Source: a virus
Length of the DNA stretch: 64,000 nucleotides
Reading direction: 5' to 3' (one strand)
IMG/VR virus record: IMGVR_UViG_3300025593_000028
Span: 1 to 64,000 of that record
Shown here: positions 6,071 to 58,220 of the stretch, in pieces
How the letters are laid out: each line of letters starts with the position of its first letter
Position numbering within the stretch: the first letter of the stretch is position 1
The notes under the pieces: generated by a model
What the model was told of the DNA's origin: nothing
The model's input: only the letters and a program-made list of their open reading frames with translations
The model's database searches: none
Program-made: the position numbers and the translations under genes

Positions 6071-6084
6071 GGCCTCTCCCCGCG

Positions 6085-9651: not shown

Positions 9652-10895
9652 GCGAGTAGCTCACCCTTCGCCGCCTCCACGAGGTCTGACGGTGCTCGGC
9701 CCACGTACTCGCTGGCGTCGATCTCGATCCCCAGCGAGCCGGCCATCGCCTCTGCCTGCTCGGCGTCGAGCTCGTCCAGCTCCTCTTCGACGTCGACCCT
9801 CCCGGCGCGCACCAGCGCGGGGTCGAGCGCCTCCCTGCAGTTCGTCGTCATGATCGTGATCATCCCGTGCGGGGTCCAGACCCCGTCGAGCGAGTTCAGC
9901 ATGCCGGCGATCGACGCCTTGTCGTCGCGTTCGTCGCGCTCGGTGGCGGCGTGGAACACGTCGACGTCCTCGAGCAGGAGGACCGACCTCGGCTTGATCG
10001 CGGCGACGTACTGGGTGAGGTTCGAGTCTTTCTCGATGTCGCCCAGCGGGAGGTAGTACGTATCGAGCCCGAACTTCGCGGCGAGCGCCTTCGCGACGCT
10101 CGTCTTGCCGGTGCCGGGCGGGCCGTGGAGCAGGTAGCCTCTGTGCCAGGGCTGCCCGAGCCGCATGTACTCGCGCTCCGCCTTGAGGAACCCGTCTAGG
10201 TCGTCGACCAGTCGCTCGAGCTGCCCGCTCTTGAGCACGACGCTGTCGAGCTCGCGGGCGGGAGCGTCCCCACGCCGCACCCATTCCCCTCCCCAGCGCG
10301 ACGGCATGAAGAGCGTGGGTTCAGGGTCCTTGGCCCGCTTCGACTCGAGCAGCCCGTCGATCATCTCGACCACGGCGTCCCGTCCGGCCGCGTCCCTCGC
10401 GGTGAAGGTGATCTTCTCCATGTACTGCCGCCAGTTCTCAGGGAGGCTGGCGCGCTCCGGCACGTTCTCGCGCTCGACGGACACCACGACCACGTGGCCG
10501 TCGACCCTGACCTGCTGCCTGCGGCTGCCGTCGTACCGCAGCTTGAGCTTCTTCACCTCGCGGAACCCCGCGCCCCCGTCCGAGTCCTCGTCGTCCTCGA
10601 GCACGACCTCCGTCTGCGCGATCATCGCGCGGCGCTCGGCCTCGGGCATCTTCCCCAGCACCCACTCGTGCAGGTCCGGGTACGCCTCGTCGGTCCCCGC
10701 GACGGTGATCGTGAAGTCTTCCGTCGACTCGCGCCGGTCCCAGAGCCACTTCGCCGCGGGCCAGAGCAGCCGCCCGACGGCGACCGCGGTCGCGACCTGC
10801 CCGGCCCTCTTGCCGCCCCTCCGCTCGAGCAGCGACAGCGCGGCGGAGGCGTCCCCCGCCCCGCCCCCGGCCTTGGGTGCGTCTTCACCGCTCAC
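9648..10895 (-). CDS. BCS1-like AAA+ ATPase
   Basis: RGYLLHGPPGTGKTS (Walker A), LLLEDVD (Walker B), MLNSLDG, MTTN...LDPALVRAGRVD. Confidence 0.9.
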   Translation of the reverse strand: MSGEDAPKAGGGAGDASAALSLLERRGGKRAGQVATAVAVGRLLWPAAKWLWDRRESTEDFTITVAGTDEAYPDLHEWVLGKMPEAERRAMIAQTEVVLEDDEDSDGGAGFREVKKLKLRYDGSRRQQVRVDGHVVVVSVERENVPERASLPENWRQYMEKITFTARDAAGRDAVVEMIDGLLESKRAKDPEPTLFMPSRWGGEWVRRGDAPARELDSVVLKSGQLERLVDDLDGFLKAEREYMRLGQPWHRGYLLHGPPGTGKTSVAKALAAKFGLDTYYLPLGDIEKDSNLTQYVAAIKPRSVLLLEDVDVFHAATERDERDDKASIAGMLNSLDGVWTPHGMITIMTTNCREALDPALVRAGRVDVEEELDELDAEQAEAMAGSLGIEIDASEYVGRAPSDLVEAAKGELLA

Positions 10896-11236
10896 TTGAA
10901 CTCCGGACCTTCGCTCAGCGACCAGTCCCTCGGGTCCTCCTCGAGCACGCCCTCGCGCACCAGCGACCCGATGGCCAGCGACCAGACGGACCCGCTCGGT
11001 CCCTGCCAGGGCTTCTCGTCCTTGACGCGCATGCGGACCGACTTGCCGGCCTCTACTAGCTCCGGCTTGCTCCACGGCGGGGGCCCGATCCTGCGCGCTC
11101 CCTCGCAGTGCGGGCACGGCCACTCGAAGTCGGGGGCCATGCAGAGCGCCGCCTGGATCGCCCCGGCGGCTTCCGAGATTTCCCCGGCCAGCTTCTTCGT
11201 CACGGCGTCCACGCCGTCTTCGTACTCTGCCGTCAC
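10892..11236 (-). CDS. hypothetical protein with CPHC motif
   Basis: VTAEYEDGVDAV...WPCPHCEG; coupled to neighbouring genes. Confidence 0.55.
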   Translation of the reverse strand: MTAEYEDGVDAVTKKLAGEISEAAGAIQAALCMAPDFEWPCPHCEGARRIGPPPWSKPELVEAGKSVRMRVKDEKPWQGPSGSVWSLAIGSLVREGVLEEDPRDWSLSEGPEFK

Positions 11237-11238
11237 TC

Positions 11239-12051
11239 TCACGACGACCACGCCTCCTGCGCCATCTGGACAGCGAGCCGGTTGATCGCGCCCCAGTCGG
11301 GCTCCCCCGGCAGCTTGCTCGCTCGACCGAACGTCTCGAGGTTCTCGTCCAGCCTGTGGGCGAGCCGCTCGACGCGGTACTTCGACCACTCGCCGCGCTT
11401 GATCTCGAGCAGCTCCTCCGCGTCGCCGGCCTCCCGCCGGTCCACGGTCATCCTGCCGGTGTCGAGGAACTCGATCCCCTGCCGCAGGATGCGCACGAGG
11501 TGCGACGCCTGCTTCACGTCGTAGCCGTAGCGGTCGAAGAGCTCCTTGCGCTTCTCCCCCATGTAGCCCTGGTACGAGCCGCTGAACATCTTCCTGAGCT
11601 GGCCCTGCGCGTAGCCGCGGAACGCGGGGTACGCGCGCATCGAGCTGAACAACTCGCGACGGTCCAGCAGCATCCGCCCGGCCGGCTCGATCCACGCGTA
11701 CATCTCGTCCGGCATCCACAGCAGCGCGAGCATGTTCGGGTTGCCCTTCGCGAGCAGCCTCAGCGCCTTCCGCCACTCGTAGCAGACGACGTCCCACTGG
11801 CCCTGCCGGACCTCGACGGTCCCGCGCGAGCCGAACTCGCGCAGCCCGAGCGCGTACTCTTCGTCCGGCACGACGACGCCCATCAGGTCCCGGTCGTCGA
11901 ACGCGTCCGGCTCCTCGGGCGGCACGTAGGTGCCGTGCGCCACGCTCCCGCGCCAGCCCAGCAGCACGCAGCCCTGGCCGAGCGCGTGGTCGTTCGTCGC
12001 GCAGACCTCGGCGAAGTCCTCGCCGCACACGCTGTCCACGATCTCGCTCAC
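11239..12051 (-). CDS. Pol-beta-superfamily nucleotidyltransferase (YcgL/RlaP-like)
   Basis: RGSVAHGT...DDRDLMGV (GS + DxD), KGNPNMLALLW, YDVKQASHLVRIL, IKRG. Confidence 0.85.
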   Translation of the reverse strand: MSEIVDSVCGEDFAEVCATNDHALGQGCVLLGWRGSVAHGTYVPPEEPDAFDDRDLMGVVVPDEEYALGLREFGSRGTVEVRQGQWDVVCYEWRKALRLLAKGNPNMLALLWMPDEMYAWIEPAGRMLLDRRELFSSMRAYPAFRGYAQGQLRKMFSGSYQGYMGEKRKELFDRYGYDVKQASHLVRILRQGIEFLDTGRMTVDRREAGDAEELLEIKRGEWSKYRVERLAHRLDENLETFGRASKLPGEPDWGAINRLAVQMAQEAWSS

Positions 12052-12642
12052 CGGCTGTCCCCTTCCTCCAACCGCACGATCGCGTCTTCGAGCACCTCGC
12101 GCACGGCCTGTTCCTCGACGAGCGTGAAGCCGCCCTCGATCCTCTCCTCCAGCTCGACGATCAGCTCGGTCGTGAATTCTTCGATGCTCAGCATGGTCGT
12201 CATCCCGTCACCGTCCTCGATTCGCGGCGCCTGCGCCGTTCGTCTGCCTGCAGCTCCATCCTCTCGCGCACCTCCGACATCATCGTCCGGGCGACCGCGA
12301 TCGCGCGCTCTTCTCCGGTCCCGTGGTCGCGCCTCCACCAGCGCTTCTTCTTGTCCTTGAACCCGTCCCCGGCCACTTTCAGGTTCGTGTACCAGTCGTA
12401 GGTGCACGCCATGATCGCGTTGTCTACCTCCTTGGGCCTCTCGCCCGGGCAGACCGCGTAGGACCACGTGCCGTTCGCGCGCTGCCAGACCTCCGCCCAG
12501 AGTTTTCCGTCTCTCACGGTCATCGACTCCTCCTGTATCTAGCCGGCTTCAAGTGCTCGGGCCGGGCTTCAATGTTCTTCCGGGCGCGTTCGAGCGCCCT
12601 CCGCAGCCAGCCGCGTCTCGGTTCGTAGCGCACCGCGGTCAC
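12048..12642 (-). other. small hypothetical ORFs (12048-12203, 12200-12523, 12520-12642)
   Basis: Coupled overlaps. Confidence 0.5.
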
Positions 12643-13022
12643 CCCACGTCGATGAACTTCGGGAACCGGTCGAAGAAGCGGTGCGACGCGTCGTTCCACG
12701 GCAGCACGCCGCACTCCGGCACGCGCCTCCCCACGGCTTCCGCGAGCCGGCGGCCGATCCCGTTCCGCCTGAACTTCGGCTTCACGTAGAAGTGCGCGAC
12801 CGGGCCGTCGTACCAGCGGTCGTTGAAGACCAGCGCCCACCCCGCGAGCTCGCCCTCGACCGTCCTGACGAGGAGGGCCGTGCCGTCCTTGATCCCGCGG
12901 TCGCGGATCCTGCGCAGCGCCTCTCCCATCTGCCCGGTGCGGTAGCAGACCTTCTCGCACTCGGCCGCTTCGTCGTCCGTCATCAGGTGCACGCGCTTGT
13001 GCGTCAGCCTGCGCGTCTCCAT
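12639..13022 (-). CDS. GNAT acetyltransferase
   Basis: FYVKPKFRRNGIGRRL acetyl-CoA motif A; N...HRFF motif B. Confidence 0.85.
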   Translation of the reverse strand: METRRLTHKRVHLMTDDEAAECEKVCYRTGQMGEALRRIRDRGIKDGTALLVRTVEGELAGWALVFNDRWYDGPVAHFYVKPKFRRNGIGRRLAEAVGRRVPECGVLPWNDASHRFFDRFPKFIDVG

Positions 13023-13198
13023 CAGATCGTGGGGATCGCCCTGGCGATCTCGTGCGCGGTCTCGACCAGCATGTCTGCCGCGCACCCGGCCTGGTCCACG
13101 TCCGGCTCGGACCTCGACATCTCGTACTCGAGCGTGCTCAGGTCCGACTCGAGGTCGCCCATCAGGCCGAGCACCCTGTCCCTCTCCTCCTTGTCCAC
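13022..13198 (-). CDS. hypothetical protein
   Basis: GTG start with AGGAGAGG RBS; VDKEERDRVLGLMGDLE... Confidence 0.6.
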   Translation of the reverse strand: MDKEERDRVLGLMGDLESDLSTLEYEMSRSEPDVDQAGCAADMLVETAHEIARAIPTI

Positions 13199-13225
13199 GG
13201 CACCTCTCCTTTCCTCGTACGGGTA

Positions 13226-13299
13226 TCTGTGCGGCGGGATTTGAACCCGCGACCGCCCGGTCCCGAACCGGGAGCTCTACCAGACCGAGCCCCGCACAG
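13226..13299 (-). tRNA. tRNA-Pro(CGG)
   Basis: Cloverleaf: CTGTGCG/CGCACAG acceptor, CCCGG-TTCGGGA-CCGGG anticodon arm, GCGGG-TTCAAAT-CCCGC T arm; C1-G72, A73, no encoded CCA; own TG-A-TAGGAT promoter. Confidence 0.85.
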
Positions 13300-13311
13300 G
13301 CCCAGATCCTA

Positions 13312-13815
13312 TCAGGTCTTCGCGCCCTCGGCGAAGTACAGCAGTACCTCCACGTGTTCGTCCGTCAGCCCCTCGTACAGCTCGGGTTCCACGATCGCGT
13401 AGCGGCCCCCGACCTGGTCGTCGAGCACCCAGCCGGTGCTCTCGAGCACGCCTCGTTCCCAGTCGGCGTCGTCGTCGACGAAGGCCCAGTCCCGGCCGTC
13501 CGCGTAGTCGACGATCGCCGTCAGCTTGCTGTGCTCCCGCATACCGCGAGTCGGGCTGAAGCGCCCCGACCGCTGCCACTCGATCACGGGGAGCTCGGGC
13601 AGCCCCACCATCGGGGCGATGTGCTCGTTCGCCATTCCTTCCCAGGTCGTGCACCACGCGATCTCGAACGCCTCGCCCAGCCGCTCGAGCCGCTCCGCGG
13701 TCCCCCGTGGGACGCAGATCCTGAACCCCTCGGCATAGAACTCCTGGCCGGTGCCGCTGTTCGGAACGACGGTGTTCAGCACCCCGTCCACGTCGAGCGC
13801 CAGCAGCGGCTTCAC
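13312..13815 (-). CDS. HAD-family phosphatase (Swiss-army-knife RNA-repair-like HAD)
   Basis: LLALDVDGVLN, WCTTW, WAFVDDD, GLTDEH. Confidence 0.8.
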   Translation of the reverse strand: MKPLLALDVDGVLNTVVPNSGTGQEFYAEGFRICVPRGTAERLERLGEAFEIAWCTTWEGMANEHIAPMVGLPELPVIEWQRSGRFSPTRGMREHSKLTAIVDYADGRDWAFVDDDADWERGVLESTGWVLDDQVGGRYAIVEPELYEGLTDEHVEVLLYFAEGAKT

Positions 13816-13997
13816 GAGAGCACCCCCACGATCCAGAACGCCATCCCGGCGCCGCCGAAGATCCCGCCCGTGACCCTCCAGTCTTCGCTTGCGGCCGTGT
13901 TGCCACGCCGGCCGTAGAGCTCTTTCAACCCTATGCACGCCCAAGCCGCCACGATGCAGCCCCACAGCAGCGCGAGCCTCGCGGTCTCGTCCATCAC
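13812..13997 (-). CDS. small membrane protein
   Basis: Two hydrophobic segments. Confidence 0.55.
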   Translation of the reverse strand: MMDETARLALLWGCIVAAWACIGLKELYGRRGNTAASEDWRVTGGIFGGAGMAFWIVGVLS

Positions 13998-14037
13998 GAC
14001 CTCCCTCTCTGTAGCAGGTTCAAGATCCCGAGCACCA

Positions 14038-14790
14038 TCACAGCTCGAACTCCATTACCGGGTGCTGGCCGGCCCTGTACGAGTCCGTCAGCCAGGACAC
14101 GTTCGCGAGCTCCATGCCGCGGTCGTCCTTGCCGGGGAACGACCACCGGCCGTAGCCTTCGTGGTTGTGCCCGAAGACGCAGAGCCGGGGCTCGTGTTCG
14201 CGCACCCAGCCGGTCAGCGCCTCGCTGCCCAGCCAGCGCGCGATCCCGTTCGGGCCCCCGACGCGGTCCCCGAACCCGGACGCGGGGCCGTGCGAGATGA
14301 CGACGTCCGCGTCGGACGGGATGTCGTTCACGACGTTCGCCATGTCCACGGCGCCGGGCTTGTCGTAGGTCGGGCCCATCGAGCGCTCCTGCGCTTCGAA
14401 CGCCCAGCCCGAGACGTCCGGCCCGAGCGACCACGGCGTGCCGTAGATCTTCAGCCCGAGCACCTCGCACCACCCATCGCAGAGGTACGTCGTCCACGGG
14501 GGCAGCACGCCGCCCGCGATCAGCTCGTCTACGAACTCTCCCTTGCTGCCGCTCTTGCCGACCTCCTGCAGGACGAAGTCGTGGTTGCCCGCGATCCAGA
14601 CGACCTGCTTGGCCTGCACCTCTTCGAGCCATTCTGCCCACTCGTTGTTCAGCCACTCGAGCTGGAATTCCAGGGAGTGGTCCCAGGCCGGGCACACGTC
14701 GCCGGCCACGAGGAGCAGGTCGCACGCGCCGACGTCCAGCGCGGGGTGCGGCAGGTCGCCGTGCAGGTCGGATGTGGCTTTGACGATCAC
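14038..14790 (-). CDS. calcineurin-like metallophosphoesterase
   Basis: SDLHG, AGDV, AGNHD, SHGP, FGHNHE motifs. Confidence 0.9.
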   Translation of the reverse strand: MIVKATSDLHGDLPHPALDVGACDLLLVAGDVCPAWDHSLEFQLEWLNNEWAEWLEEVQAKQVVWIAGNHDFVLQEVGKSGSKGEFVDELIAGGVLPPWTTYLCDGWCEVLGLKIYGTPWSLGPDVSGWAFEAQERSMGPTYDKPGAVDMANVVNDIPSDADVVISHGPASGFGDRVGGPNGIARWLGSEALTGWVREHEPRLCVFGHNHEGYGRWSFPGKDDRGMELANVSWLTDSYRAGQHPVMEFEL

Positions 14791-15454
14791 GCGCCCGGGT
14801 TCTCGATCCTGACCGGGACCCCGAACACGCGAGCCGGCTCGTCGTAGTAGCCGGTCGTGACGGCCTGGCCGTCGGTGACTTCGACCGGCGTGAGTTCCTG
14901 GTCCGCGCTCACGTAGTGGACCATCCCGCCTTCCCCGAAGTGCGGCACGACGTAGCGCGTGGGCATCGACCTCATCGAAGCGTGCTTCTTCACGAGCCAG
15001 TCGAACTGGTGCTGCCAGAGCAGGATCTCGTCCACGCCGTCCTCGGCGCGCCGTACGTCCTTGTACATCGGAGCAAGCTCCAGCGGCTCGGCGACCCCGA
15101 GGTACGAGATGATGTGCTTGCCGCGCATCACTCGACCTCCACAAGCATCGCCACTGTGAAGCCCGCTAGGTCCTCCAGCTTCTCCAGGAGGTCGACGTCT
15201 CCGACCCAGACGTCCGCGCCGTAGCCTGGCGTGTAGGTGCCGTAGCCGAATTCTCCTTCTCGAGCGTGAAGGTCTCCCTCGGCCACGCTCTTGGCGTTCT
15301 CGGCCCAGAGCGTCACTTTAGCCGGCCGGTCCTCGAAGCCGAGCAGGTCCTCAAGCTCGGACACCACGAACCGCCCGCCGATCTTCACGTCCACGGTTTC
15401 TTCGCCGACGATCTCGACGATGCCATCGAACTCGAGCTTAGATGCCTCACTCAT
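14787..15454 (-). other. two hypothetical ORFs (14787-15131, 15128-15454)
   Basis: Coupled overlaps; ordinary composition. Confidence 0.6.
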
Positions 15455-17857: not shown

Positions 17858-18646
17858 TCAGGCGCCCGAGGGGCGGTAGATCGAGCGCCAGTCGGCCGAG
17901 TAGCTCGGGTCGCAGAGCATCTGCCACGGCATCAGGCAGTAGCCCGACAGCCCCCAGCCGGATCCCCACGAGTTCCTCACGAGCCCGTACTCCGGCCGGT
18001 CCTTGAGGTACCCGACCAGCAGGACCTCGTGGCCGCCCAGCTGCCGCTCGCGCGGCCCGGGCATCGGGACGACCCCGGTCCGCTCGACGGTGCTCGACTC
18101 GAAGCTCTCGAAGACCGTGAACCCGAACGCGACCGTCTGCCGGTTCGACAGCAGCCTCTTGAGCGCGTCCCTACGGTCCTCCCAGCTCCGCTTGAGCGGC
18201 AGCCCCGGGTGGACGTAGCGGCCGATCTTGTGCTGGCCCGCGGCGTCGAACGCCTCGGGAGACGGCTTGTCGGCGAACTTGGAGATGTCGTACGGCCAGA
18301 GGTCCTCCGGCGGGGCTCCGGTCTTCCTTAGGGCCTTGAAGCCGTCGTGGCCGTAGGCGCCCGAGTCTTCGCTGACGGTCCCCTCTCGGAGCCTCTCTAG
18401 GTAGTAGATGAACAGGCGGCTCGGGGTACCGAAGTGGTCCCCGTCGAGGATGCAGTCGTACTCGAACGCGCCCGCGATCGCGTTGCCCGTGCACGAGCCC
18501 AGCTGGCCCTGGTCGTAGGGGTCCGGCATGTCTGACCTGGGGTCGACCTCGTCGGCGATCGTCAGCCCGCTCGGGTCGGCAGGGGTGTCTCGGAAGTCGG
18601 GGTGGGACGGCTTCCATCCGTAGAAGCGTGTCGTGGGCGTTGGCAA
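17858..18646 (-). CDS. papain-like C1 cysteine peptidase
   Basis: DQGQLGSCTGNA (Gln/Cys), GGHEVLLVGY (His), RNSWGSGWG (Asn). Confidence 0.92.
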   Translation of the reverse strand: MPTPTTRFYGWKPSHPDFRDTPADPSGLTIADEVDPRSDMPDPYDQGQLGSCTGNAIAGAFEYDCILDGDHFGTPSRLFIYYLERLREGTVSEDSGAYGHDGFKALRKTGAPPEDLWPYDISKFADKPSPEAFDAAGQHKIGRYVHPGLPLKRSWEDRRDALKRLLSNRQTVAFGFTVFESFESSTVERTGVVPMPGPRERQLGGHEVLLVGYLKDRPEYGLVRNSWGSGWGLSGYCLMPWQMLCDPSYSADWRSIYRPSGA

Positions 18647-25498: not shown

Positions 25499-26527
25499 GT
25501 GGCGGAGGTAGAAAGGGACTACTGGGCGGGGTTCTCGGACTTTGTGCTGGGAGAGACGTGGGCCGGGGGGCCCAGCCCGAACCTGAAGCTCGTGGGCGCG
25601 CTCGCCGACGAGCTCGAGCCGCCCACCAGAGAACACAGGACGTGGCTCGCCTGCTGCTACGCCGCGATCTACAATACGTCCGGGACGGCGGCCCTCTATC
25701 GGCACTGGCCCGACCCGAGCGACGTGATCGCCGACCCCGATCCGGCCGGTTGGATCGAGGAGAACAGGCCCGGGATGCCGGTGCACTCGAACCGGCGCAG
25801 GACGCACGGCTCGCCGCGCAAGATGGCAGAGGGCCTCGAATCTCTCGCTCGGTTCTCGATGTGCGACTACTTCGAACCCGGGGACGACTACGACATGCTC
25901 TGGGACAACGTCCACGAGGTCTCGCACGTGGGCCGCTACTTCGGGATCAAGCTCGCCGGCACCCTGCGCGAGCTCGGCCTCACGGAGGCCGCGCAGTACG
26001 ACATCAGGGGCAACGGAGCGAAGAACGGGCGCCGCACGCTCGCGCTGCTCTACCCCGACGAGGCCGACTCGCTCGACATGAAGTCCGGCGGGAACTCGAG
26101 GCGCGCCGTGCTCCTAGCAGAGGACCGCGCCGCCGAGGTCAAGTCCTGGCTCGAAGACGAGCGCGGCCTCGCGGTAGACTGGTTCCAGCTCGAGGCGCTG
26201 CTTTGCGAGTTCAACCAGATGGTCAAGGGGAACCGCTACGCGGGCAAGACTTCGGACGCCGACTACGACGTGCTGCTCAAGGCCGAGTCCCACTTCGGGG
26301 CCGAGCCGTTCGCGCCGGTCCGCCGCGCGCGAGAGCGGCTGCTCCCGCTCGAGCTCGTCGAGACGAGCAAGCGCGAGAGGCTTCTCCCGGTCTACCGAGA
26401 CTGCGGGTACGTCTGGATCGACGGTTGGCACGACGACGGTGCCACCGACGACCCAGCGGACCCCGCGGTAAGGTCGGACAAGACCCTCAAGCAGGTGCCC
26501 ATCACTACGCCGTGGAGAGGAGACTGA
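25499..26527 (+). CDS. amino acid:DNA transferase-like (aGPT-PPlase/ADDT, HhH-glycosylase fold) DNA hypermodification enzyme
   Basis: HVGRYFGIKL HhH-like segment; FQLEALLCEF...RYAGK resembles the ExxLCE..K/Y.G signature; adjacent P-loop kinase. Confidence 0.7.
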   Translation: MAEVERDYWAGFSDFVLGETWAGGPSPNLKLVGALADELEPPTREHRTWLACCYAAIYNTSGTAALYRHWPDPSDVIADPDPAGWIEENRPGMPVHSNRRRTHGSPRKMAEGLESLARFSMCDYFEPGDDYDMLWDNVHEVSHVGRYFGIKLAGTLRELGLTEAAQYDIRGNGAKNGRRTLALLYPDEADSLDMKSGGNSRRAVLLAEDRAAEVKSWLEDERGLAVDWFQLEALLCEFNQMVKGNRYAGKTSDADYDVLLKAESHFGAEPFAPVRRARERLLPLELVETSKRERLLPVYRDCGYVWIDGWHDDGATDDPADPAVRSDKTLKQVPITTPWRGD

Positions 26528-27015
26528 TGGCGAGGCCCAAGGAGATCGTCGACGGGGTGCTGTGGATGAGCAGCAGCCCGGGCAAGTGGGAGCCGCGCGA
26601 GAAGCGCGACGCGTGGCTGCGCGACAACGGCATCGAGCACGTCGTGGCGCTGTGCAACAGAGACCCGGAGACGCAGGGAGTAGTGCCCGACACCGTGCAT
26701 GCTCCCGTCGTGGACTCGCACAAGACCGTCGCCGGCGCGATCCCTAGGTCGATCGCGCCGACCGTGGCCCAGTGGGTCCGGGACGGGGAGCCCACGCTAG
26801 TGAGCTGCCTAGCCGGCAGGTCCCGCTCAGGGATCACCTGCGGGCTAGTGCTCCGCGAGCTGTACGACCTGTCCGGCGAGGAGGCGCTCGAGCTCCTCCG
26901 CGATCGGCGCCCGCGCGCGATCAAACGCGAGGGCCCGGAAGCATGGTTCAGCGCGCTGCCGAGGCCGAGCGCCGATCCAGAGCCCGACGGATCTGAGACG
27001 ATCGGCACGGTGTGA
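26527..27015 (+). CDS. dual-specificity/PTP-like phosphatase
   Basis: LVSCLAGRSRSG CX5R loop; GIEHVVALC; PVVD acid loop; TGATG overlap. Confidence 0.85.
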   Translation: MARPKEIVDGVLWMSSSPGKWEPREKRDAWLRDNGIEHVVALCNRDPETQGVVPDTVHAPVVDSHKTVAGAIPRSIAPTVAQWVRDGEPTLVSCLAGRSRSGITCGLVLRELYDLSGEEALELLRDRRPRAIKREGPEAWFSALPRPSADPEPDGSETIGTV

Positions 27016-27401
27016 GGACCGGGACCATCTACGGCCTCTGCGACCCCGACGGGACGCTCAGGTACGTGGGGAAGACGGTGCAGCGACCCAGGGAACGGCG
27101 CAGCGGCCTCGTCCGCGAGGCCGTTCAGCGTGGTCGTAGCTGCCCGGTGCACGGGTGGATCCGCGACCTCGTCGAAGCCGGGTCCGGACCCGCGCTCTGG
27201 CTCCTAGAAGAGGGCGTCCCGGTAGGCGACTTGGACGACCGCGAGAAGGCGTGGATCGACGCACTACGCAGCGACGGGATCGAGCTGCTTAACGTGTTCG
27301 CGGGCGGCAACGGCGGCAAGCCGATGCCCAAGCGCAAGAGAGACAGACTGTCGGCGGTCGCCATCGGGCGGCCCCGGCTCGAGAACGGGAGGTTCGCGTG
27401 A
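27012..27401 (+). CDS. GIY-YIG endonuclease
   Basis: TIYGLCDP...RYVGKT...R...E...LLN. Confidence 0.85.
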   Translation: MRTGTIYGLCDPDGTLRYVGKTVQRPRERRSGLVREAVQRGRSCPVHGWIRDLVEAGSGPALWLLEEGVPVGDLDDREKAWIDALRSDGIELLNVFAGGNGGKPMPKRKRDRLSAVAIGRPRLENGRFA

Positions 27402-28012
27402 TCCTCAACCTCAGGGGGCCCAGCGGCTCCGGCAAGAGCTACCCCGGGTTCAGGCTCCTAGACAACTACGGCCCGCCGGTGGAGGAGATCCGGAGCACCG
27501 ACTACTTCGGGAGGAAGCGCCCCAAGCTGATCGCGCAGATCCTGCCGGGCGGGCTCTGCCTAGCCGGCAGGTACACGATGAAGAAGAGCACGGTCGGCGA
27601 CGGCGTCGGGTACTCCGGAGGAGTGGACGGATTCTTCCCGGTAGCAGAACTGCAGGACATGCTGACGATGCTCAGCGACCGCTTCCCACACATGCTCGTC
27701 GAGAGCCTGATGATCAGCGGCACGTACCAGCGCTGGGCCGACTGGGCCGACGAACGGGACGCCGCGGGACAGCCCGTCACCTTCGCGACCCTCGACACGC
27801 CGCTCGAGACCTGCCTGCGCAGGGTGCGTGAGCGAAACGGCGGCCGCGAGGTCAAGGACGACACGATCGCTAAGCACCGCAAGCAGGTGCACAGGTGCGC
27901 GAGCCGCCTCCGCGAGGAGGGCGGGCACAGATCGTTGATCCTAGACCACACGCGCTCCTACGACCAGGTCGAGCACCTGCTGCTCGAGGGCGGCTGGGAC
28001 CCGACACAGTAG
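27398..28012 (+). CDS. P-loop nucleotide kinase (5-hmdU-DNA-kinase-like by context)
   Basis: ILNLRGPSGSGKS, GRY...GGVD, LDTPLETCLRRVRERNG lid. Confidence 0.75.
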   Translation: MILNLRGPSGSGKSYPGFRLLDNYGPPVEEIRSTDYFGRKRPKLIAQILPGGLCLAGRYTMKKSTVGDGVGYSGGVDGFFPVAELQDMLTMLSDRFPHMLVESLMISGTYQRWADWADERDAAGQPVTFATLDTPLETCLRRVRERNGGREVKDDTIAKHRKQVHRCASRLREEGGHRSLILDHTRSYDQVEHLLLEGGWDPTQ

Positions 28013-52341: not shown

Positions 52342-53625
52342 CTACCATCCCTCGTCCTCCCGCTTTGAGACGTACAGCGGGCACTGCATGCTGATGCCGT
52401 GCTGCGGCGTGACGACGCAGAGCGCCTGCTGCGGCGGCTCGGGCTCGAACCCCTTGCCCCGCGCGTACTCGTCGTAGCCCTTGCCGGCGCCGTTGCAGAT
52501 GAAGCCCTTCGCTACGAGCGACATGTACTGGTGCCAGTGGCCAACGAGCAGGACGTCGAACGGCCTGCCCTCCGAGCTGGCCTGGGTCCTGCGGCGGTGC
52601 GTCAGGAGCGCCAGCGGCAGCATCGCCCCCTGGATCCCGCTACCCCCGCGGGCCTCGTCGCCGTGCTCGGCGCGGAACCGCGTCTCGTAGATCGAGAAGT
52701 CAGACGAGATCCCGTCCGGGATGTCGAAGGTGACCCTGTCGTCTCCAGCGAAGTTCGCGGCCACCAGCTTCATGATCAGCGTGTCGGCGTTGTGCGCCGA
52801 GCGCTTCTTATACCGGGGCTGCTTGCTGTCGCGTGGGTGGTTGCCCGGCACGCACGGGACGTGCACGCGGCCGAACTCGTCGGCCAACATGCCGATCCCC
52901 TCCGTGATGAGGGGTACTGCGAACGGCACGGCCTCGTAGTTCGACAGCTCGTTGGTCTGCCTGAACTCGTCGTGGATCTCCCCCGAGATCGTGTCGCCCA
53001 GAGACGCCATCACTACCCCGTCGTAGTCGACCCCCGCGAGGTACTGGCGGGCGACCAAGATCTGGCGCTCGAAGAACCGCTTGAGCCGCTGTTCTGCGAT
53101 CGCCGGATCGTAAGCGTTGTAGCCAGCGAGCTCTCCCGGGCTCACGACCTCCCCTACGTGGAAGTCCGAGAACAGCGATAGGAGAGTGCCCCGGTGCGAG
53201 CCCTCGTCCTCCGGGCGAGGCGCGAGCCACTCGGGGCTCGGGATGCTCTCTACGTCTAGCGCCAGGGTCAGCTCACGCTGGGTCTTCTCGAGCTCCCCCT
53301 CGAGCTCGTCGGTACGCTGGCGCGCGACCCGCGCTTCGGTCGTCGCTGCTGACGCGCGTGACTGCAGGGACAGGACCTTGCTCGCGAGCTCCTTCTCGAC
53401 CGGCGTGGGCTCGGCCCCGTCGTCGGCGACCTCGACCGAGGCCGCTCGGTCTACTGTGGTCTCGCGCTTGAAGTTCGGGCGGCCGCGCCGTTCCTTCCAC
53501 CAGCGCTGCGACACGGCCGAATCGCTGCACCCCGCTTGGCGCGCCGCGTCGGCGAATGACTCCGCCTCACCGGACGCGATGATCTCGACGGCGTCGTCGA
53601 CCTTGCTGCTCGAGGGTGCGCTCAC
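52342..53625 (-). CDS. HTH + coiled-coil + metallophosphoesterase/nuclease
   Basis: SFADAARQAGCSDSAVS HTH; SDFHVG, LGDTISGEIH, PGNH, HGD, GHWH. Confidence 0.8.
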   Translation of the reverse strand: MSAPSSSKVDDAVEIIASGEAESFADAARQAGCSDSAVSQRWWKERRGRPNFKRETTVDRAASVEVADDGAEPTPVEKELASKVLSLQSRASAATTEARVARQRTDELEGELEKTQRELTLALDVESIPSPEWLAPRPEDEGSHRGTLLSLFSDFHVGEVVSPGELAGYNAYDPAIAEQRLKRFFERQILVARQYLAGVDYDGVVMASLGDTISGEIHDEFRQTNELSNYEAVPFAVPLITEGIGMLADEFGRVHVPCVPGNHPRDSKQPRYKKRSAHNADTLIMKLVAANFAGDDRVTFDIPDGISSDFSIYETRFRAEHGDEARGGSGIQGAMLPLALLTHRRRTQASSEGRPFDVLLVGHWHQYMSLVAKGFICNGAGKGYDEYARGKGFEPEPPQQALCVVTPQHGISMQCPLYVSKREDEGW

Positions 53626-53635
53626 TATCTAGACA

Positions 53636-54046
53636 CTACTCCTTTGTCGAATTGCAATGCGGAAGATGCTGTGCTACATTAGCAAATAGAAAACCACACG
53701 ATGGGCAAAAATCAAGAGCAGATGGCCCCTGCCCCCAGCGGCCCATCGGCACTGGATCTTTGAAATACTGCTCTTTTCTACGGCTGGACAGCCACGGGCT
53801 CAACAGCTCGAACACGGCACCTACCGCTACAGCTGACCTAGCTCGCCAGCGCCAAGACCAGTCATAGTTGTTGCGGTCAGACGGTGTCTTTGACCTGATG
53901 ACATGTCCCACTCCCACTACATGATGAAATCTACGTACTGGCTCCTCATCGCACATGAGTAGAGCCGCAGATGAGCTGGTCCAATGCCCCTCTCCCTCAA
54001 AGAGCCCGGCTGCCCAGGCGGCCTCGGCGTCGCTTACTCCTGCCAC
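53636..54046 (-). CDS. LAGLIDADG-like homing endonuclease
   Basis: AWAAGLFEGEG; visibly lower GC than its neighbours. Confidence 0.7.
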   Translation of the reverse strand: MAGVSDAEAAWAAGLFEGEGHWTSSSAALLMCDEEPVRRFHHVVGVGHVIRSKTPSDRNNYDWSWRWRARSAVAVGAVFELLSPWLSSRRKEQYFKDPVPMGRWGQGPSALDFCPSCGFLFANVAQHLPHCNSTKE

Positions 54047-55308
54047 GGCTCCGGCCTATGCACCCATCCTGAGATCTCTTGCGGCCAGCGCCGGTAGTCA
54101 AGTGAGCAGTTGAACTCGTACTCGCGATCTCCTATCTTCTTGCAGGGCGCACCTGGTTTCCCGTCAAGCGCACGTCCGACCCACCCTGAGATCCAGCGAC
54201 CGTTCTCCACTGGAGCGCACTTGCCCACGTACTTCGACGCGTTCCCGACCGAGATGCCCTCCGGCCAGCGCCAAGCGTCCGGCAGGCCCATGAGCCTCGA
54301 CAGCTCGCGGATCGTGAGGAATCGCGTCTCGCTCCAGTGCACGAACTTCGACGCGCCGGACCCTGCTACCACGTAGCCCGGCCGGTCGGGACGGATCCTA
54401 GTGGGCCACTGCCAGCCTCGCGGGTCGCGCCAGTTAGACTCGTCGTAGGCGAACCGCTGCAGCAGCGTCGGGGGCGGCGAGTCCTGCTTGAGGATCGCCT
54501 CCTTCATGTTCTCGCCCGGGAGCCAGTCCTGCTCGATCTCGCGCAGCAGCGCCCCGAGCCGCGCCGTGTCTTCGTCGATCGTCACGTGCGCGTCGACCCG
54601 GCCGTCCTCACGGCGCTTCCTCGCGGCCCACTCGCTCGGTTTCCGGCGGATCGCCTGCTCGCCCCACTTGATCGAGAGCTTCTGCAGGTCACCGATGGCT
54701 TCCTCGTACGTCACGACCTTGCGAGGCTCGGGCGCGTCGATCCCGAACGGCACCCGGTGAGCGACCCAGAAGTAACGGTGCCGGAGCTGCGCCGCCCCGA
54801 CCGTCGCCCCCGACATCATCACGTGCGTCAAGTCGTAGCTCTGGCCCGACGATCGCTCTAGCTCAGAACGCAACCGAAGCATCAGGTCTCGCCCGGTCGT
54901 GTAGGCCTGCTGCACGGACTCGAAGGCCACGATCTCTGCTCCCGGGGCGCCGTCCTCGCCCGTGCAGCGACCGCCGAACTTGGCTAGGTCTCTCATGCAC
55001 GAGTTGATGGGCGAGTCCGGGCCCCTGGAGTTCTCTCCCTTGGAGACGTTCATCAGCGAGAAGCCGCTGCACGGCGGGGTGCCGTGCACGTAGCCTACGC
55101 CATCGTAGGGCTCCCACTCGCGCTCTGGGGCCTCCTGCACCTCTACTCCCTCGGTGCCCAGCAGCTCAGCGTTCTCGTAGAACGCGTCATCACCGAAGCC
55201 GCCCGGTAGGGTCGCGCGGCCGACCACGTCAAACTTCTCCGTCTCCACGGTCCCCAGCGTCCAGTGGCCCGCGAGGCCCTGGCAGTCTACGGCGCGGTGC
55301 TTGCTCAC
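54034..55308 (-). CDS. divergent C5-cytosine DNA methyltransferase-fold enzyme
   Basis: GTPPCSGFS (IV), FESV (VI), QLRHRYFWVA (VIII), RFLTIRELSRLMGLPD (IX), YVGKCAP (X, Asn->Lys). Confidence 0.85.
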   Translation of the reverse strand: MSKHRAVDCQGLAGHWTLGTVETEKFDVVGRATLPGGFGDDAFYENAELLGTEGVEVQEAPEREWEPYDGVGYVHGTPPCSGFSLMNVSKGENSRGPDSPINSCMRDLAKFGGRCTGEDGAPGAEIVAFESVQQAYTTGRDLMLRLRSELERSSGQSYDLTHVMMSGATVGAAQLRHRYFWVAHRVPFGIDAPEPRKVVTYEEAIGDLQKLSIKWGEQAIRRKPSEWAARKRREDGRVDAHVTIDEDTARLGALLREIEQDWLPGENMKEAILKQDSPPPTLLQRFAYDESNWRDPRGWQWPTRIRPDRPGYVVAGSGASKFVHWSETRFLTIRELSRLMGLPDAWRWPEGISVGNASKYVGKCAPVENGRWISGWVGRALDGKPGAPCKKIGDREYEFNCSLDYRRWPQEISGWVHRPEPWQE

Positions 55309-55460
55309 TCTACGTACGCTCCTCTGTCGGCTGCTGCAAACATCAGTTCCTCTGCCATCGCTTCTGCTAGGTCTTCACCTTCGGCCAGCGACATGCCCTC
55401 GCCGTCACAGTACATCACGAATGCGACCACCAGATCGTTCAGCGTAGGTCCGACGTTCAT
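55305..55460 (-). CDS. hypothetical protein
   Basis: ATGA/GTGA overlaps. Confidence 0.5.
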   Translation of the reverse strand: MNVGPTLNDLVVAFVMYCDGEGMSLAEGEDLAEAMAEELMFAAADRGAYVE

Positions 55461-55816
55461 CCCTCGTAGAAGCTCCTCCGCCTCGCGGCGGTCTTGTCTT
55501 GCGCTGCTCTGCACAGCTTTGCGAAGTCCTCGTCTCCGTAGCCGCAGTTGAGTACCAGATTCCACAAGAAGAGCTGGACGTCAGCGAGCTCCTCCGCGAC
55601 CATCTGACCCTCCGTGGTGCCTATCAGCGGCCCGCCGGTCTCCGCGTCGGCCCAGGGCTTCCAGCCGGGGACCTCACGAAGGGCCTCGTGCAGCTCGTCG
55701 GTAGCAGCCAGGACGTTGTCCCTGAACGAGCGGGCCAGGTCCTCCCCGGCCCGCTCGTACGGATCCTCCCCGAAGCTCTCGCGCTGGAGAGCTCGCTGTC
55801 TACCGATCAAGCCCAC
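55457..55816 (-). CDS. all-alpha dNTP pyrophosphatase (dimeric dUTPase/MazG-like)
   Basis: DELHEAL...WKPW...EELADVQLF. Confidence 0.8.
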   Translation of the reverse strand: MGLIGRQRALQRESFGEDPYERAGEDLARSFRDNVLAATDELHEALREVPGWKPWADAETGGPLIGTTEGQMVAEELADVQLFLWNLVLNCGYGDEDFAKLCRAAQDKTAARRRSFYEG

Positions 55817-57447: not shown

Positions 57448-58038
57448 TCAGAAGCCGCGCTGCCTCCTGCGGATCTTCTCTGCCAGCTTCGGTTCAGACA
57501 CGTGAGTGTAGATCATAGTGGTGTCTACGCTCTTGTGGCCGAGCAGGTTCTGGATCTCGCGGATGTTGAGGTCTCCCTCGCTCATCAGCTCGGTCGCGTA
57601 CGTGTGCCTGAGCATGTGCGGGTGGCACGGGCCTTCGATGCCGGCCCGCCGCCCGTAGCGCTGCATCATCTGCCAGCAGTAGTGCGGGGACACGGGGCTC
57701 CCCTTCAGCGTCACGAAGAGAATCTTGCTTCCGTCCGCGTATTTCTCTCGCTCTCGCTTCCAGCGTTCTACGAGCTCGAGCGTGCCGTCCTCGATCTGGA
57801 CGTAGCGCTCCACCTTGTTCTTGGCGATGGCCGCGCGGATGTGGATGCGCCGCTCGCGCACCTGGACGTCGCGGACGTTCAGGCGGCAGAGCTCGCCCAC
57901 TCGCAGCCCTGCGCGGTACATCAGCTCGAGCATCGCGCGGTTCCTGATGCCGGTCGGCCGCCGCATGTTCGGCACCGCCAGCAGAGCACGCACGTCCTCG
58001 TCCGAGAAGATCTTCGGAAGCTCTCGTCCCTTCTTCAT
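57448..58038 (-). CDS. small tyrosine recombinase (XerD/FimB-like catalytic domain only)
   Basis: R (GLRVGEL), K, HMLRH, LLGH, Y (TTMIYTH); ~196 aa, no arm-binding domain. Confidence 0.93.
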   Translation of the reverse strand: MKKGRELPKIFSDEDVRALLAVPNMRRPTGIRNRAMLELMYRAGLRVGELCRLNVRDVQVRERRIHIRAAIAKNKVERYVQIEDGTLELVERWKREREKYADGSKILFVTLKGSPVSPHYCWQMMQRYGRRAGIEGPCHPHMLRHTYATELMSEGDLNIREIQNLLGHKSVDTTMIYTHVSEPKLAEKIRRRQRGF

Positions 58039-58220
58039 ATAAGCAATTTCTCCTCTAAGCCAGTCGCAGACTGAGATTCGTACGTGGGGTACCCGCATAT
58101 AGATCATACCCGCAGACGAATGTTGCTGCTATAGAGGCCGCTCTCACCTGAGCAGACGAAGATTCCTCATATGCAGGCCGCAGTAGATCCTTCGCGGCAC
58201 ATGATAGTGCTTATATGACG
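58035..58220. promoter_or_regulatory. probable recombinase target / regulatory site
   Basis: 11-bp inverted repeat TCATATAAGCA (58035-58045 / 58208-58218); core-like CGGCACATGA-TAGTGC-TTATATGACG; GCAGAC repeats. Confidence 0.5.

Follow-up and report, generated by a model that had tools for sequence, protein, structure and literature searches.

A lysine-type enzyme with the cytosine-C5 methyltransferase fold that may act on 5-hydroxymethylcytosine-type bases in actinobacterial phages

Introduction

What does a phage enzyme write into DNA if it has the fold of a cytosine-C5 methyltransferase but carries a lysine at the position of the motif X asparagine? The question is raised by a gene at 54034..55308 on the minus strand of a 64,000-nucleotide stretch of viral DNA (the window; positions 1 to 64,000 of IMG/VR virus record IMGVR_UViG_3300025593_000028), which was delimited by its open reading frame, its translation and a PF00145 match and which encodes a lysine-type (K-type) protein of 424 amino acids. 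An earlier note, made from the letters of the window, had read this gene as a candidate carboxymethyltransferase that uses carboxy-SAM (Cx-SAM) to write 5-carboxymethylcytosine (5cxmC), or else another non-methyl adduct at C5. As an idea, a natural carboxymethyltransferase is no longer new, natural 5cxmC writing by CmoX having been published in 2025 (Yang et al., Nat Commun 2025, PMC12783734). Here, we ask which chemistry the residues, the family and the genomic neighborhood of the K-type gene point to.

Results

The K-type protein matches PF00145 with an E value of 9.7e-11, and its AlphaFold2 model (pLDDT 92, pTM 0.91) retrieves DNMT1, MET1, ZMET2, M.HaeIII and 3g7u as best Foldseek matches (E values of 1e-17 to 1e-14); model, Foldseek and PF00145 agree on a class I methyltransferase-like catalytic domain with a target-recognition domain. 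The protein scores only 18 bits against the NCBIfam dcm model with its cut-off of 100, and its N-terminal 60 residues gave no sequence alignment to methylases in the PDB.

All motifs quoted in the earlier note can be read in the translation. Motif IV stands in the context GTPPCSGFS, with PPC at residues 78 to 80 (nt 55069-55077), and the catalytic PC motif Pro78-Pro79-Cys80-Ser81 (55066..55077, minus strand) carries a serine where canonical enzymes have glutamine (PCQ). In motif VI, the ENV of C5-methyltransferases, the glutamate protonates N3; here the motif is FESV at residues 129 to 132, with ESV for ENV at Glu130-Ser131-Val132 (54913..54921, minus strand). Motif VIII (QxRxR) is QLRHR, Gln174-Leu-Arg176-His-Arg178 (54775..54789, minus strand), motif IX is RFLTIRELSRLMGLPD, and motif X is KYVGKCAPV. 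The SAM-binding motif I reads DCQGLAGH at residues 8 to 15, keeping G11 and G14 and lacking the phenylalanine of FxGxG; with a predicted strand at residues 4 to 9, a loop at 10 to 14 and a helix at 15 to 22, Asp8-Cys-Gln-Gly-Leu-Ala-Gly14 (55267..55287, minus strand) would form a remodelled loop that links strand 1 to helix A. Canonical PF00145 enzymes (M.HaeIII, M.HhaI and the DNMT1 domain) resemble the K-type protein in fold, motif order, the PC cysteine, the motif VI glutamate, the RxR of motif VIII and motif IX, whereas the latter differs from them in having GK instead of GN, PCS instead of PCQ, ESV instead of ENV, no motif I phenylalanine and a threonine for the glutamate that ends strand 2. 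Judged from sequence and model, it is a catalytically intact, DNA-directed enzyme with a cytosine-C5 methyltransferase fold.

The lysine itself, Lys363, is encoded by an AAG codon at 54220..54222 (minus strand) and replaces the motif X asparagine in the alignments (GN to GK); in canonical enzymes this Gly-Asn pair lines the site of the methyl group and sulfonium. Using phmmer, "kyvgkcapv" is paired with "kmignavpv" of M.HaeIII and with "iGNavp" of DNMT1, the family profile alignment gives the same pairing with both enzymes, and hhalign pairs GK(363) with G-R350 of SpCmoX. Position R350 of CmoX corresponds to HhaI N304 and to M.MpeI N374K (PMC12783734), which bears out the placement of the lysine at the N374 position in the earlier note; the equivalence to N374 is transitive via HhaI N304 and CmoX R350, because M.MpeI (4DKJ) is absent among the PDB sequence matches. 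A parallel statement in that note, on Dcm N436K, was not found in our literature check.

To see how far these residues extend beyond one protein, we counted them in an HMM alignment of the family, in which 232 to 260 members are aligned per position (the family forms 217 clusters at 50% identity, E<=1e-30). Lysine occupies position 363 in 253 of 256 members and arginine in one, and on this alignment Lys363 is a family trait and no chance substitution. The catalytic cysteine C80 is present in 244/244 members and the serine behind it, S81, in 224/244; E130 is found in 257/257 and S131 in 249/257; R176 and R178 are essentially invariant, and R329, E335 and R338 of motif IX nearly so. In the motif I region, G14 is found in 234/237 members, D8 in 207/232 and C, V, A or F at position 9; PPC is preceded by T in this protein and by T, N, V or C across the family. 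Conservation extends to the G-loop, F38-G39 and N46, while position 33 at the end of strand 2, a threonine in this protein, is serine in 106 members and the canonical glutamate in 94 (about 40%). No relatives, cellular or prophage, were found in 185,579 species genomes, and by this search the family is virus-only.

The conserved cofactor-side loop and pocket, together with the canonical glutamate in part of the family, suggest that an adenosyl cofactor such as SAM is still bound. With its full catalytic motif set and C5-methyltransferase fold, the protein could thus be a DNA cytosine-5 methyltransferase of the usual kind, which depends on SAM and places 5mC at unsubstituted cytosines or at a subset of sites, with Lys363, Ser81 and Ser131 as lineage-specific pocket variants that leave the chemistry unchanged. 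Yet such a reading does not explain why the lysine would be fixed together with both serines, and for this and for reasons of genomic context given below we regard it as unlikely.

How close is the family, then, to enzymes in which a cationic residue at this site goes with Cx-SAM? SpCmoX from Synechococcus phage S-B43 (PDB 8YF3, PMC12783734) is likewise a phage protein of the C5-methyltransferase fold in which the site of HhaI N304 is taken by a cationic residue; its catalytic motif is SPPCS against TPPCS, so that the serine after the cysteine is common to both, and the cytosine-binding glutamate and arginine are intact in both. However, SpCmoX has not lysine but Arg350, which binds the carboxylate of Cx-SAM, and it keeps ENV, the motif I phenylalanine and the motif II glutamate, whereas the K-type protein has ESV and the DCQGLAG loop and belongs to putative 5hmC-type phages. 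The relationship is distant (23% identity by hhalign, rank 46 in Foldseek), and no special closeness to CmoX is apparent in the fold ranking. Having TPPC and Lys363 (cationic and functionally similar) in place of SPPC and Arg350, the protein would have been missed by the SPPC-plus-R350 filter of PMC12783734. The engineered enzymes M.MpeI N374K, M.MedI N377K and M.CviPI Y205K/R carry a lysine (lysine or arginine in M.CviPI) at the same pocket position, where a cationic side chain confers Cx-SAM use (PMC12015181, PMC13288465). Each of them derives from a true methylase by a mutation at one site and retains SAM activity, while the natural K-type family departs from such enzymes at several further places in the pocket and lacks any Cx-SAM supply that we could find. 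With SAM, M.MedI-N377K methylates fully, M.MpeI-N374K partially and M.CviPI Y205K/R like the wild type, which itself naturally has tyrosine instead of asparagine at the motif X site (PMC12015181, PMC13288465); these activities are in line with plain methylation by a lysine-bearing enzyme.

For a K-type enzyme that makes 5cxmC from host-derived Cx-SAM, as the earlier note had it, the structural premise is accordingly intact, namely a lysine at the N374/N304/R350 position and a serine after the catalytic cysteine as in SpCmoX, but no source of the cofactor was found. The note had seen no CmoA-like Cx-SAM synthase in the window, and this holds for the complete 95-kb genome, in which TIGR00740 yields no candidate, as well as for three cultured relatives and 22 IMG/VR relatives (seven of them at least 90% complete); the same search recovers the CmoA of phage S-B43, our positive control, at 115.6 bits. 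Its suggestion that the cofactor comes from the remaining part of the genome or from the host gains no support from the same search, since none of 201 sampled Actinomycetes genomes has a match over the cut-off (three weak matches, 44 to 50 bits). In contrast, CmoA is found on most of the R-type CmoX contigs that have been published (4257 CmoA for 5615 CmoX; PMC12783734), and the SpCmoX gene adjoins both CmoA and the ligase CmoY, of which no counterpart was seen among the ORFs scanned here. Class I methyltransferase domains fused to K-type domains were considered as a CmoA in disguise and rejected, being FkbM/UbiG-like instead and having no CmoA match. The carboxymethyl reading is therefore weak, and we consider it very improbable, the more so as C5 is probably pre-occupied by a hydroxymethyl group, for which we turn to the gene neighborhood.

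A thymidylate synthase (TS) homologue is present in 13/13 near-complete genomes that carry the K-type family. According to published rules for such homologues, Asp in place of ThyA N177 indicates dCMP as substrate, Asp or Glu in place of L143 indicates a hydroxymethyl product, and a retained D169 argues against a 5-hydroxy-dCMP synthase (PMC13326640). All 13 have Asp at the N177 and L143 positions and keep D169, with the pattern KDVPCT...RSQD...GTPYD of this genome recurring throughout; the dUMP hydroxymethylases SP8 and Sa157lw, by contrast, have Asn at the N177 position. The profile of these homologues matches T4 dCMP hydroxymethylase best (142 bits, versus at most 94 for thymidylate synthases), and the best PDB match of the homologue from this genome, used as a single query, is the CMP hydroxymethylase MilA. 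With one replication module common to all 13 genomes, the co-occurrences are not independent events.

Next to the K-type gene lies a MazG-like NTP pyrophosphohydrolase (55457..55816, minus strand; phrog_173, E 8.9e-8), a candidate dCTPase, whose homologue is found directly upstream of the K-type gene and on the same strand in 30/36 loci and is annotated as MazG-like in Sixama, DSL-LC01 and Kurnik. These three cultured relatives also share a small ORF at the same position as the one called here between the two genes (55305..55565, minus strand; no family match), whose true start is probably further downstream because, as called, it overlaps with the MazG-like gene. Together with a dNMP-kinase-like gene, this gene content recalls the T-even 5hmC pathway, which consists of the gp56 dCTPase, the gp42 dCMP hydroxymethylase, the gp1 kinase and glucosyltransferases: we see here a TS homologue that is gp42/MilA-like and shares the diagnostic residues, an NTP pyrophosphatase of the all-alpha type and the kinase-like gene. 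From gene content alone, we infer that the phage builds 5hm-dCTP, and therefore that 5hmC replaces C in its DNA; in the literature, no report was found on the DNA composition of the cultured relatives. Unlike this genome, T4 has no enzyme of the C5-methyltransferase fold. Glycosyltransferases are annotated beside the K-type gene in Sixama, DSL-LC01 and Kurnik, whereas this genome gives no PF00534 or PF00535 match (GT1/GT2), nor were TET/JBP, a dCMP deaminase or the HMUDK helical domain found in it.

Instead, the genome holds a kinase/ADDT cassette. It comprises an amino acid:DNA transferase of the ADDT/aGPT-Pplase-like type (25499..26527, plus strand; PF18724, 28.7 bits, cut-off 26.2), a dual-specificity-phosphatase-like (DSP) gene (26530..27015, plus strand, start approximate; PF00782, E 5.5e-7, at residues 352 to 455 in the frame of ORF 25558-27015), of a family that occurs in relatives too, and a homologue of the P-loop 5-hydroxymethylpyrimidine DNA kinase, HMUDK (27398..28012, plus strand; PF18748, 32.9 bits, cut-off 27; E 2.5e-9 in the genome search). 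The kinase/ADDT module is present in 3/13 near-complete genomes, and the ADDT-DSP-(FkbM methyltransferase)-kinase cassette shares an operon with the MazG/K-type pair in at least 10 loci. An exhaustive search of family representatives further revealed fusions: at least seven representative proteins combine the K-type domain with the FkbM-type methyltransferase of the cassette, and one protein joins the K-type domain to a 5-hmdU-DNA-kinase helical domain (E 5e-40), the latter being weak evidence because a single 5.6-kb contig is the source of this lone sequence. A scan of viral contigs for its genomic context, with this fusion protein as query, gave no match.

Discussion

Since no source of Cx-SAM was found and the family is in the constant company of hydroxymethylcytosine genes, chemistry on a modified base is likelier than carboxymethylation, and the 5hmC context favours the second clause of the earlier note, that of another non-methyl C5 adduct. 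As our best explanation, we tentatively propose that the K-type enzyme is a core part of a 5hmC-based DNA-modification system of lytic actinobacterial phages and performs covalent C6 chemistry on 5hmC-type bases, and is not a Cx-SAM-dependent carboxymethyltransferase. In favor of this proposal, the residues for covalent activation of cytosine, C80, E130, R176 and R178, are all invariant across 244 to 260 family members. The family is found in viruses only, co-occurs strictly with the dCMP-hydroxymethylase-type TS homologue, is linked to MazG, adjoins and is fused to parts of the cassette, and comes without CmoA in the genomes searched.

Such a reaction might proceed as follows. In a flipped 5hmC, the 5-CH2-OH group (or 5-CH2-O-phosphate after action of the DNA kinase) would occupy the place where the methyl group of SAM normally sits, next to Lys363 and to the two residues that have shrunk in the family, with Ser81 for Gln after the cysteine and Ser131 for the Asn of ENV. 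Addition of Cys80 to C6 would go along with protonation of N3 by Glu130, and Lys363 could serve as acid or charge partner of the leaving oxygen group. The resulting exocyclic-methylene intermediate might then be captured by a nucleophile or resolved otherwise, and a co-substrate would be held in the conserved nucleotide-type pocket, made up of the G-loop, F38-G39, N46 and the E or S that ends strand 2. The geometry around Lys363 and the pocket is argued from homology, alignment and predicted secondary structure. Taken further, the family would be a new DNA-modifying class in which the Cys-C6 mechanism has been repurposed for 5hmC or phosphorylated 5hmC in phage DNA, an oxygen leaving group being exchanged or removed with the help of Lys363 to give an undescribed cytosine hypermodification; this idea strikes us as doubtful.

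A precedent exists in aGPT-Pplases belonging to clade 2, from phages M6 and ViI, for which thiolate attack at C6 has been proposed to drive substitution at 5-(pyrophosphoryloxymethyl)pyrimidine (5-CH2-O-PP), that is, to exchange the leaving group which the C5 methylene bears (PMC8989533). The likeness is one of mechanism only, as these enzymes of thymidine hypermodification have an unrelated helix-hairpin-helix fold and act on uracil-derived bases. Their homologues, like those of the DNA kinase, are neighbors of the K-type gene. Against our proposal, the apparent retention of an adenosyl cofactor fits ordinary group transfer to unsubstituted cytosine equally well. Moreover, the decorating modules vary, from glycosyltransferases in the cultured relatives through kinase/ADDT in 3/13 genomes to this genome, where GT1/GT2 and TET were both not found, and because the K-type family is present whatever the module, it is not obvious that its role would depend on any one leaving group.

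Plain methylation, for its part, leaves unexplained why the family is confined to phages that encode a dCMP-hydroxymethylase-type enzyme, where few free C5 positions are expected, and why it is fused to a small-molecule-type FkbM methyltransferase or a DNA kinase domain. It is also conceivable that unsubstituted cytosine in DNA receives some other group, of one carbon or larger, from the enzyme without Cx-SAM. This could be a post-replicative hydroxymethylation of residual cytosines with formaldehyde or folate, which would proofread a 5hmC genome, or a transfer of another part of SAM, such as an aminocarboxypropyl group whose carboxylate is bound by Lys363. In vitro and in the absence of SAM, C5-methyltransferases do attach aldehydes at C5, the machinery for forming the C5 carbanion is kept, the lysine suggests an anionic or carbonyl partner, and a back-up writer of the same mark would fit the link to 5hmC genes. 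Nevertheless, a natural DNA enzyme of this type is without known precedent, no sequence feature indicates a folate site, and the fusions to the cassette methyltransferase and kinase are explained no better than by chemistry on 5hmC-type bases, so that we judge such a transfer improbable.

If the K-type enzyme does act on 5hmC-type bases, this would be a new reaction class for one of the best-studied enzyme folds and would imply an unknown cytosine hypermodification in actinobacterial phages, a counterpart of the thymidine hypermodification pathways. Site-specific enzymes that derivatise 5hmC or cytosine are sought as tools for epigenetic sequencing, as illustrated by the engineered N374K enzymes. 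Should plain methylation turn out to be its activity, a cationic residue in place of the motif X asparagine would by itself be no predictor of carboxymethyltransferases, and both the published SPPC-plus-Arg filter and its lysine analogue would need genomic context, that is, CmoA. The question is directly testable because cultured carriers exist, among them Sixama, Forza, Phendrix and GMA2, all Gordonia phages, and Micrococcus phage Kurnik.

As to the limits of the gene itself, it starts with GTG, which overlaps the stop of the small upstream ORF (GTGA), and the N-terminus of the protein is common to its homologues. A search for longer homologues turned up only an intein-bearing form.

A C5-methyltransferase fold with lysine at the motif X position

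The gene at positions 54034 to 55308 of the window (minus strand) encodes a protein of 424 residues, P0001, and starts at a GTG that shares bases with the stop codon of a small ORF lying upstream. All motifs that the earlier note had quoted were recovered in the translation: the motif I loop DCQGLAGH (residues 8 to 15), motif IV GTPPCSGFS with the catalytic Cys80, motif VI FESV (residues 129 to 132), motif VIII QLRHR (residues 174 to 178), motif IX (RFLTIRELSRLMGLPD), and motif X KYVGKCAPV, in which the codon AAG at 54220 to 54222 (minus strand) specifies Lys363. P0001 matches PF00145 in Pfam (E 9.7e-11), and its AlphaFold2 model, for which 35 homologues were used, is confident (pLDDT 92, pTM 0.91). 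The top structural matches of the model are DNMT1, MET1, ZMET2, M.HaeIII and the prophage methylase 3g7u (E 1e-17 to 1e-14), and the carboxymethyltransferase SpCmoX (8YF3) ranks 46th. By fold and catalytic motifs, P0001 is a member of the C5-methyltransferase superfamily; judged from translation and model, it shows a DNA-methylase fold with the full residue set predicted to activate a flipped cytosine covalently. Motifs I, II and VI depart in part from the canonical ones: the motif I loop keeps Gly11 and Gly14 but lacks the Phe, the acid expected at position 33 of motif II is Thr in P0001, and motif VI retains Glu130 but has Ser for Asn. A 136-aa ORF (53636 to 54046, minus strand) with a GLFEGEGHW motif and a match to phrog_5046 ("HNH endonuclease") overlaps the stop of the gene and probably encodes a homing endonuclease of the free-standing type. 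Most relatives lack it, and there the exonuclease (here at 52342 to 53625) directly follows.

The motif X Asn is not found in P0001, since Lys363 occupies its position. This placement, which the earlier note had assumed in its comparison with the engineered M.MpeI N374K, proved right: phmmer pairs "kyvgkcapv" of P0001 with "kmignavpv" of M.HaeIII and "qiGNavp" of DNMT1, the family profile agrees, and hhalign of the family alignment against the CmoX gene of phage S-B43 (L002:1447-2562) sets Gly362-Lys363 on Gly349-Arg350 of SpCmoX (probability 97%). Arg350, in turn, replaces Asn304 of HhaI, touches the carboxymethyl group of carboxy-SAM (Cx-SAM) and mirrors M.MpeI N374K (PMC12783734), which provides the equivalence with M.MpeI.

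About 256 members, among them representatives of clusters at 50% identity, were aligned by HMM. Lys363 is present in 253/256 members, Cys80 in 244/244, Glu130 in 257/257 and Ser131 (ENV to ESV) in 249/257; Ser81 takes the place of the canonical Gln of PCQ in 224 of 244, and Arg176 and Arg178 are essentially invariant. As read from this alignment, the Asn-to-Lys substitution is a family trait, and the putative donor-side pocket of this K-type family is shown to be rebuilt yet strongly conserved. An exhaustive search returned 217 cluster representatives at E<=1e-30. A separate search of 185,579 prokaryotic species, represented by one genome each, gave no relative. Cultured carriers (about 32% identity) are Gordonia phages (Sixama, Forza, Phendrix, GodonK, GMA2 and others), Micrococcus phage Kurnik and Actinomycetia phage DSL-LC01, all of which keep PPCS and GK. 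Two homologues, P0099 and P0122, carry inteins (Hint_2, LAGLIDADG_3) exactly at the catalytic Pro-Pro-Cys, so that the methylase Cys would double as the first C-extein residue. We found no published account of the family or of the bases that make up the DNA of the cultured phages carrying it.

Carboxymethylation and the search for CmoA

Natural DNA cytosine carboxymethylation has been published: a phage CmoA supplies SpCmoX with Cx-SAM, and glycine is afterwards attached by the ligase CmoY (PMC12783734). The 5,615 CmoX candidates of that study were required to hold SPPC and Arg350, and 4,257 CmoA genes lay on their contigs (PMC12783734). Because TPPC and Lys escape this filter, it was reasonable to propose a Lys-type CmoX. 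The P0001 family indeed resembles SpCmoX in PCS and in the cationic residue at motif X, but P0001 departs from the published definition (SPPC, Arg350, CmoA context) in having TPPC, Lys363 and no CmoA. The virus genome is complete (95,288 bp, G+C 66%, direct terminal repeats of 127 bp), the window being its first 64 kb, and TIGR00740, which detects the S-B43 CmoA as a positive control (115.6 bits, E 2.5e-34), gave zero candidates in it, zero in Sixama, DSL-LC01 and Kurnik, and zero in 22 IMG/VR relatives, seven of them >=90% complete. No CmoY-like ligase occurred among the scanned ORFs.

The earlier note had supposed that the host or the rest of the genome would supply the cofactor. An actinobacterial host is supported by a full-length sigma-70 family factor of the phage (regions 1.2, 2, 3 and 4; L003:4945-5967, genome 67942-68967, minus strand) with 42% identity to a sigma factor encoded in an uncultured Actinomycetes MAG. 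In 201 genomes drawn from the class to which an Actinomycetes genome belongs, CmoA never exceeded the cut-off, three of them giving weak matches below it (44 to 50 bits), and in the genomes searched neither supposed source is borne out. Moreover, M.MedI-N377K methylates fully with SAM and M.MpeI-N374K partially, M.CviPI Y205K/R methylate as the wild type does, and SAM is about 400-fold above Cx-SAM even in E. coli. A cationic residue at the motif X site is permissive, not decisive, for Cx-SAM use. The Lys position stands, and we regard the proposal that P0001 writes 5-carboxymethylcytosine from Cx-SAM as very improbable.

A dCMP-hydroxymethylase-type partner and a conserved locus

One divergent thymidylate-synthase (TS) homologue is present in 13/13 near-complete genomes carrying the K-type family; the phages counted here are related to one another, and such co-occurrences do not represent independent events. 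In the present genome it is encoded beyond the window (genome 66200-67465, L003:3203-4465, minus strand; KDVPCT, RSQD, GTPYD), with a Cys-rich zinc-ribbon-like tail at the C terminus and about 95 Arg-rich residues called at the N terminus that are probably untranslated. It is flanked by a dNMP-kinase-like gene (PPK2/thymidylate-kinase-like; L003:4183-4881, minus strand) and by an HhH-GPD glycosylase (L003:2781-3353, minus strand) beside DNA polymerase I. Under published TS-family rules, Asp at ThyA N177 denotes a dCMP substrate, Asp/Glu at L143 a hydroxymethyl product and Asn at D169 a 5-hydroxy-dCMP synthase (Lee et al. 2026, PMC13326640). All 13 homologues read x-D-x-P/I-C-T ... R-S-x-D ..., with an Asp eight residues later, a pattern that is the predicted signature of a dCMP hydroxymethylase; Asn stands in place of that final Asp in the known dUMP hydroxymethylases, from SP8 and from a ViI-like phage. 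The best solved relatives of the TS-homologue profile are T4 dCMP hydroxymethylase (142 bits) and the CMP hydroxymethylase MilA (131 bits), with no thymidylate synthase scoring above 94 bits, and MilA is the best match of the present protein searched alone.

Across 38 loci (this window, three cultured phages and 34 IMG/VR loci), the K-type gene is the last of a conserved replication/recombination block that runs SNF2 helicase, PD-(D/E)XK nuclease, AAA_24 RecA-like ATPase, SSB-like protein, MazG-like NTP pyrophosphatase, K-type gene. The MazG-like gene is directly upstream in 30/36 loci, and glycosyltransferases flank the pair in Sixama, DSL-LC01 and Kurnik. In independent work, phage contigs with modified cytosine were associated with TS homologues plus pyrophosphatases of the PRA-PH/MazG type (PMC8670742). 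In the genomes compared, the K-type enzyme is shown to be obligatorily accompanied by genes that should pre-load C5 with hydroxymethyl. The block also holds a minimal 219-aa tyrosine recombinase (57448 to 58107, minus strand; Phage_integrase E 1.7e-45), in a phage family for which 185,579 species genomes yielded no prophage relative. Directly upstream of the K-type gene of DSL-LC01 is a class I methyltransferase of 170 aa.

Decorating genes and domain fusions

The decorating genes differ from phage to phage. In at least 10 loci, a cassette of HAD, amino acid:DNA transferase (ADDT), DSP phosphatase, in some a methyltransferase, and DNA kinase shares the operon of the MazG/K-type pair. The present genome carries its cassette apart from the K-type gene (25499 to 28012, plus strand), with the ADDT at 25499 to 26527 (28.7 bits), the 5-hmdU-DNA-kinase homologue HMUDK at 27398 to 28012 (32.9 bits), and a DSP-type phosphatase followed by a weak GIY-YIG match between them, all on the plus strand. 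The PHROGs label of the kinase, "terminase small subunit" (phrog_800), is probably misleading. Genome-wide, kinase and ADDT occur in 3 of 13 genomes; GT1/GT2, TET/JBP and dCMP deaminase are absent from the present one. The cassette in this genome, together with a sole TS homologue of the dCMP type, suggests a hypermodification pathway for cytosine that parallels the one for thymidine.

Further domains are found in the long family members, which with a single exception retain the Lys: a C-terminal FkbM-family class I methyltransferase in at least seven representative proteins (P0161, P0169, P0180, P0182, P0164, P0176 and P0187), a UbiG-like Methyltransf_23 domain in four and a winged helix domain in five. 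No match to CmoA was seen among these fused methyltransferase domains. The 221-aa methyltransferase between the cassette phosphatase and kinase of several relatives (L023, L024, L025 and L038, about 5926-6596) is homologous, also by way of phrog_8156, to the fused FkbM-type extension, which, as a Rosetta-stone argument, ties the K-type enzyme to that cassette. The homologue P0140 is fused to a 5-hmdU DNA kinase helical domain (E 5e-40); being a singleton on one short contig, it counts for little.

Proposed function

Taking the sequence together with its modelled fold and gene neighborhood, we infer that the K-type enzyme is probably part of a modification system based on 5-hydroxymethylcytosine (5hmC) and not a Cx-SAM enzyme. 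If 5hmC replaced C in the phage DNA, C5 would not be free for methyl or carboxymethyl transfer. In a flipped 5hmC, the 5-CH2-OH, or the phosphate ester into which the DNA kinase would turn it, would occupy the usual site of the SAM methyl, adjoining residue 363 and two shrunken positions, Ser81 and Ser131. Cys80 would add at C6 so that the oxygen group could leave, Lys363 would serve as acid or as charge partner, and a nucleophile would then trap the exocyclic methylene so formed. Bacterial C5-methylases perform SAM-independent reactions of a related kind on 5hmC in vitro. A thiolate-at-C6-driven exchange at 5-CH2-O-PP has been proposed for clade 2 aGPT-Pplases (PMC8989533). It is tempting to speculate that such Lys363-assisted covalent chemistry operates here, and we hold this specific mechanism to be possible, at somewhat less than even chances.

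The chief argument against this mechanism is that the G-loop, F38-G39 and N46 are conserved in the family and that about 40% of members keep the canonical Glu with which strand 2 ends, so that the enzyme may still bind an adenosyl cofactor. These same residues keep alive both an ordinary SAM methylase acting on residual cytosines, which we consider unlikely, and the transfer of some other group to a free C5, which appears more unlikely still. We see a genuine chance, if below even and slightly below that of the mechanism outlined for 5hmC, that the family performs a new chemistry.

Other cargo of the genome

RNA-repair genes (RlaP nucleotidyltransferase, HAD_SAK_2, metallophosphatase, RtcB, RNA ligase and Rv2179c-like exoribonuclease) are spread over 11239 to 15144 of the window and L003:9172-12205, on the minus strand, and this toolkit across the early arms suggests a defense against host tRNA-cleaving systems. 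The left early arm also encodes, on the minus strand, a BCS1-like AAA ATPase of 491 aa (9648 to 11123) and a papain-family cysteine protease of 262 aa (17858 to 18646), unusual cargo for a phage.
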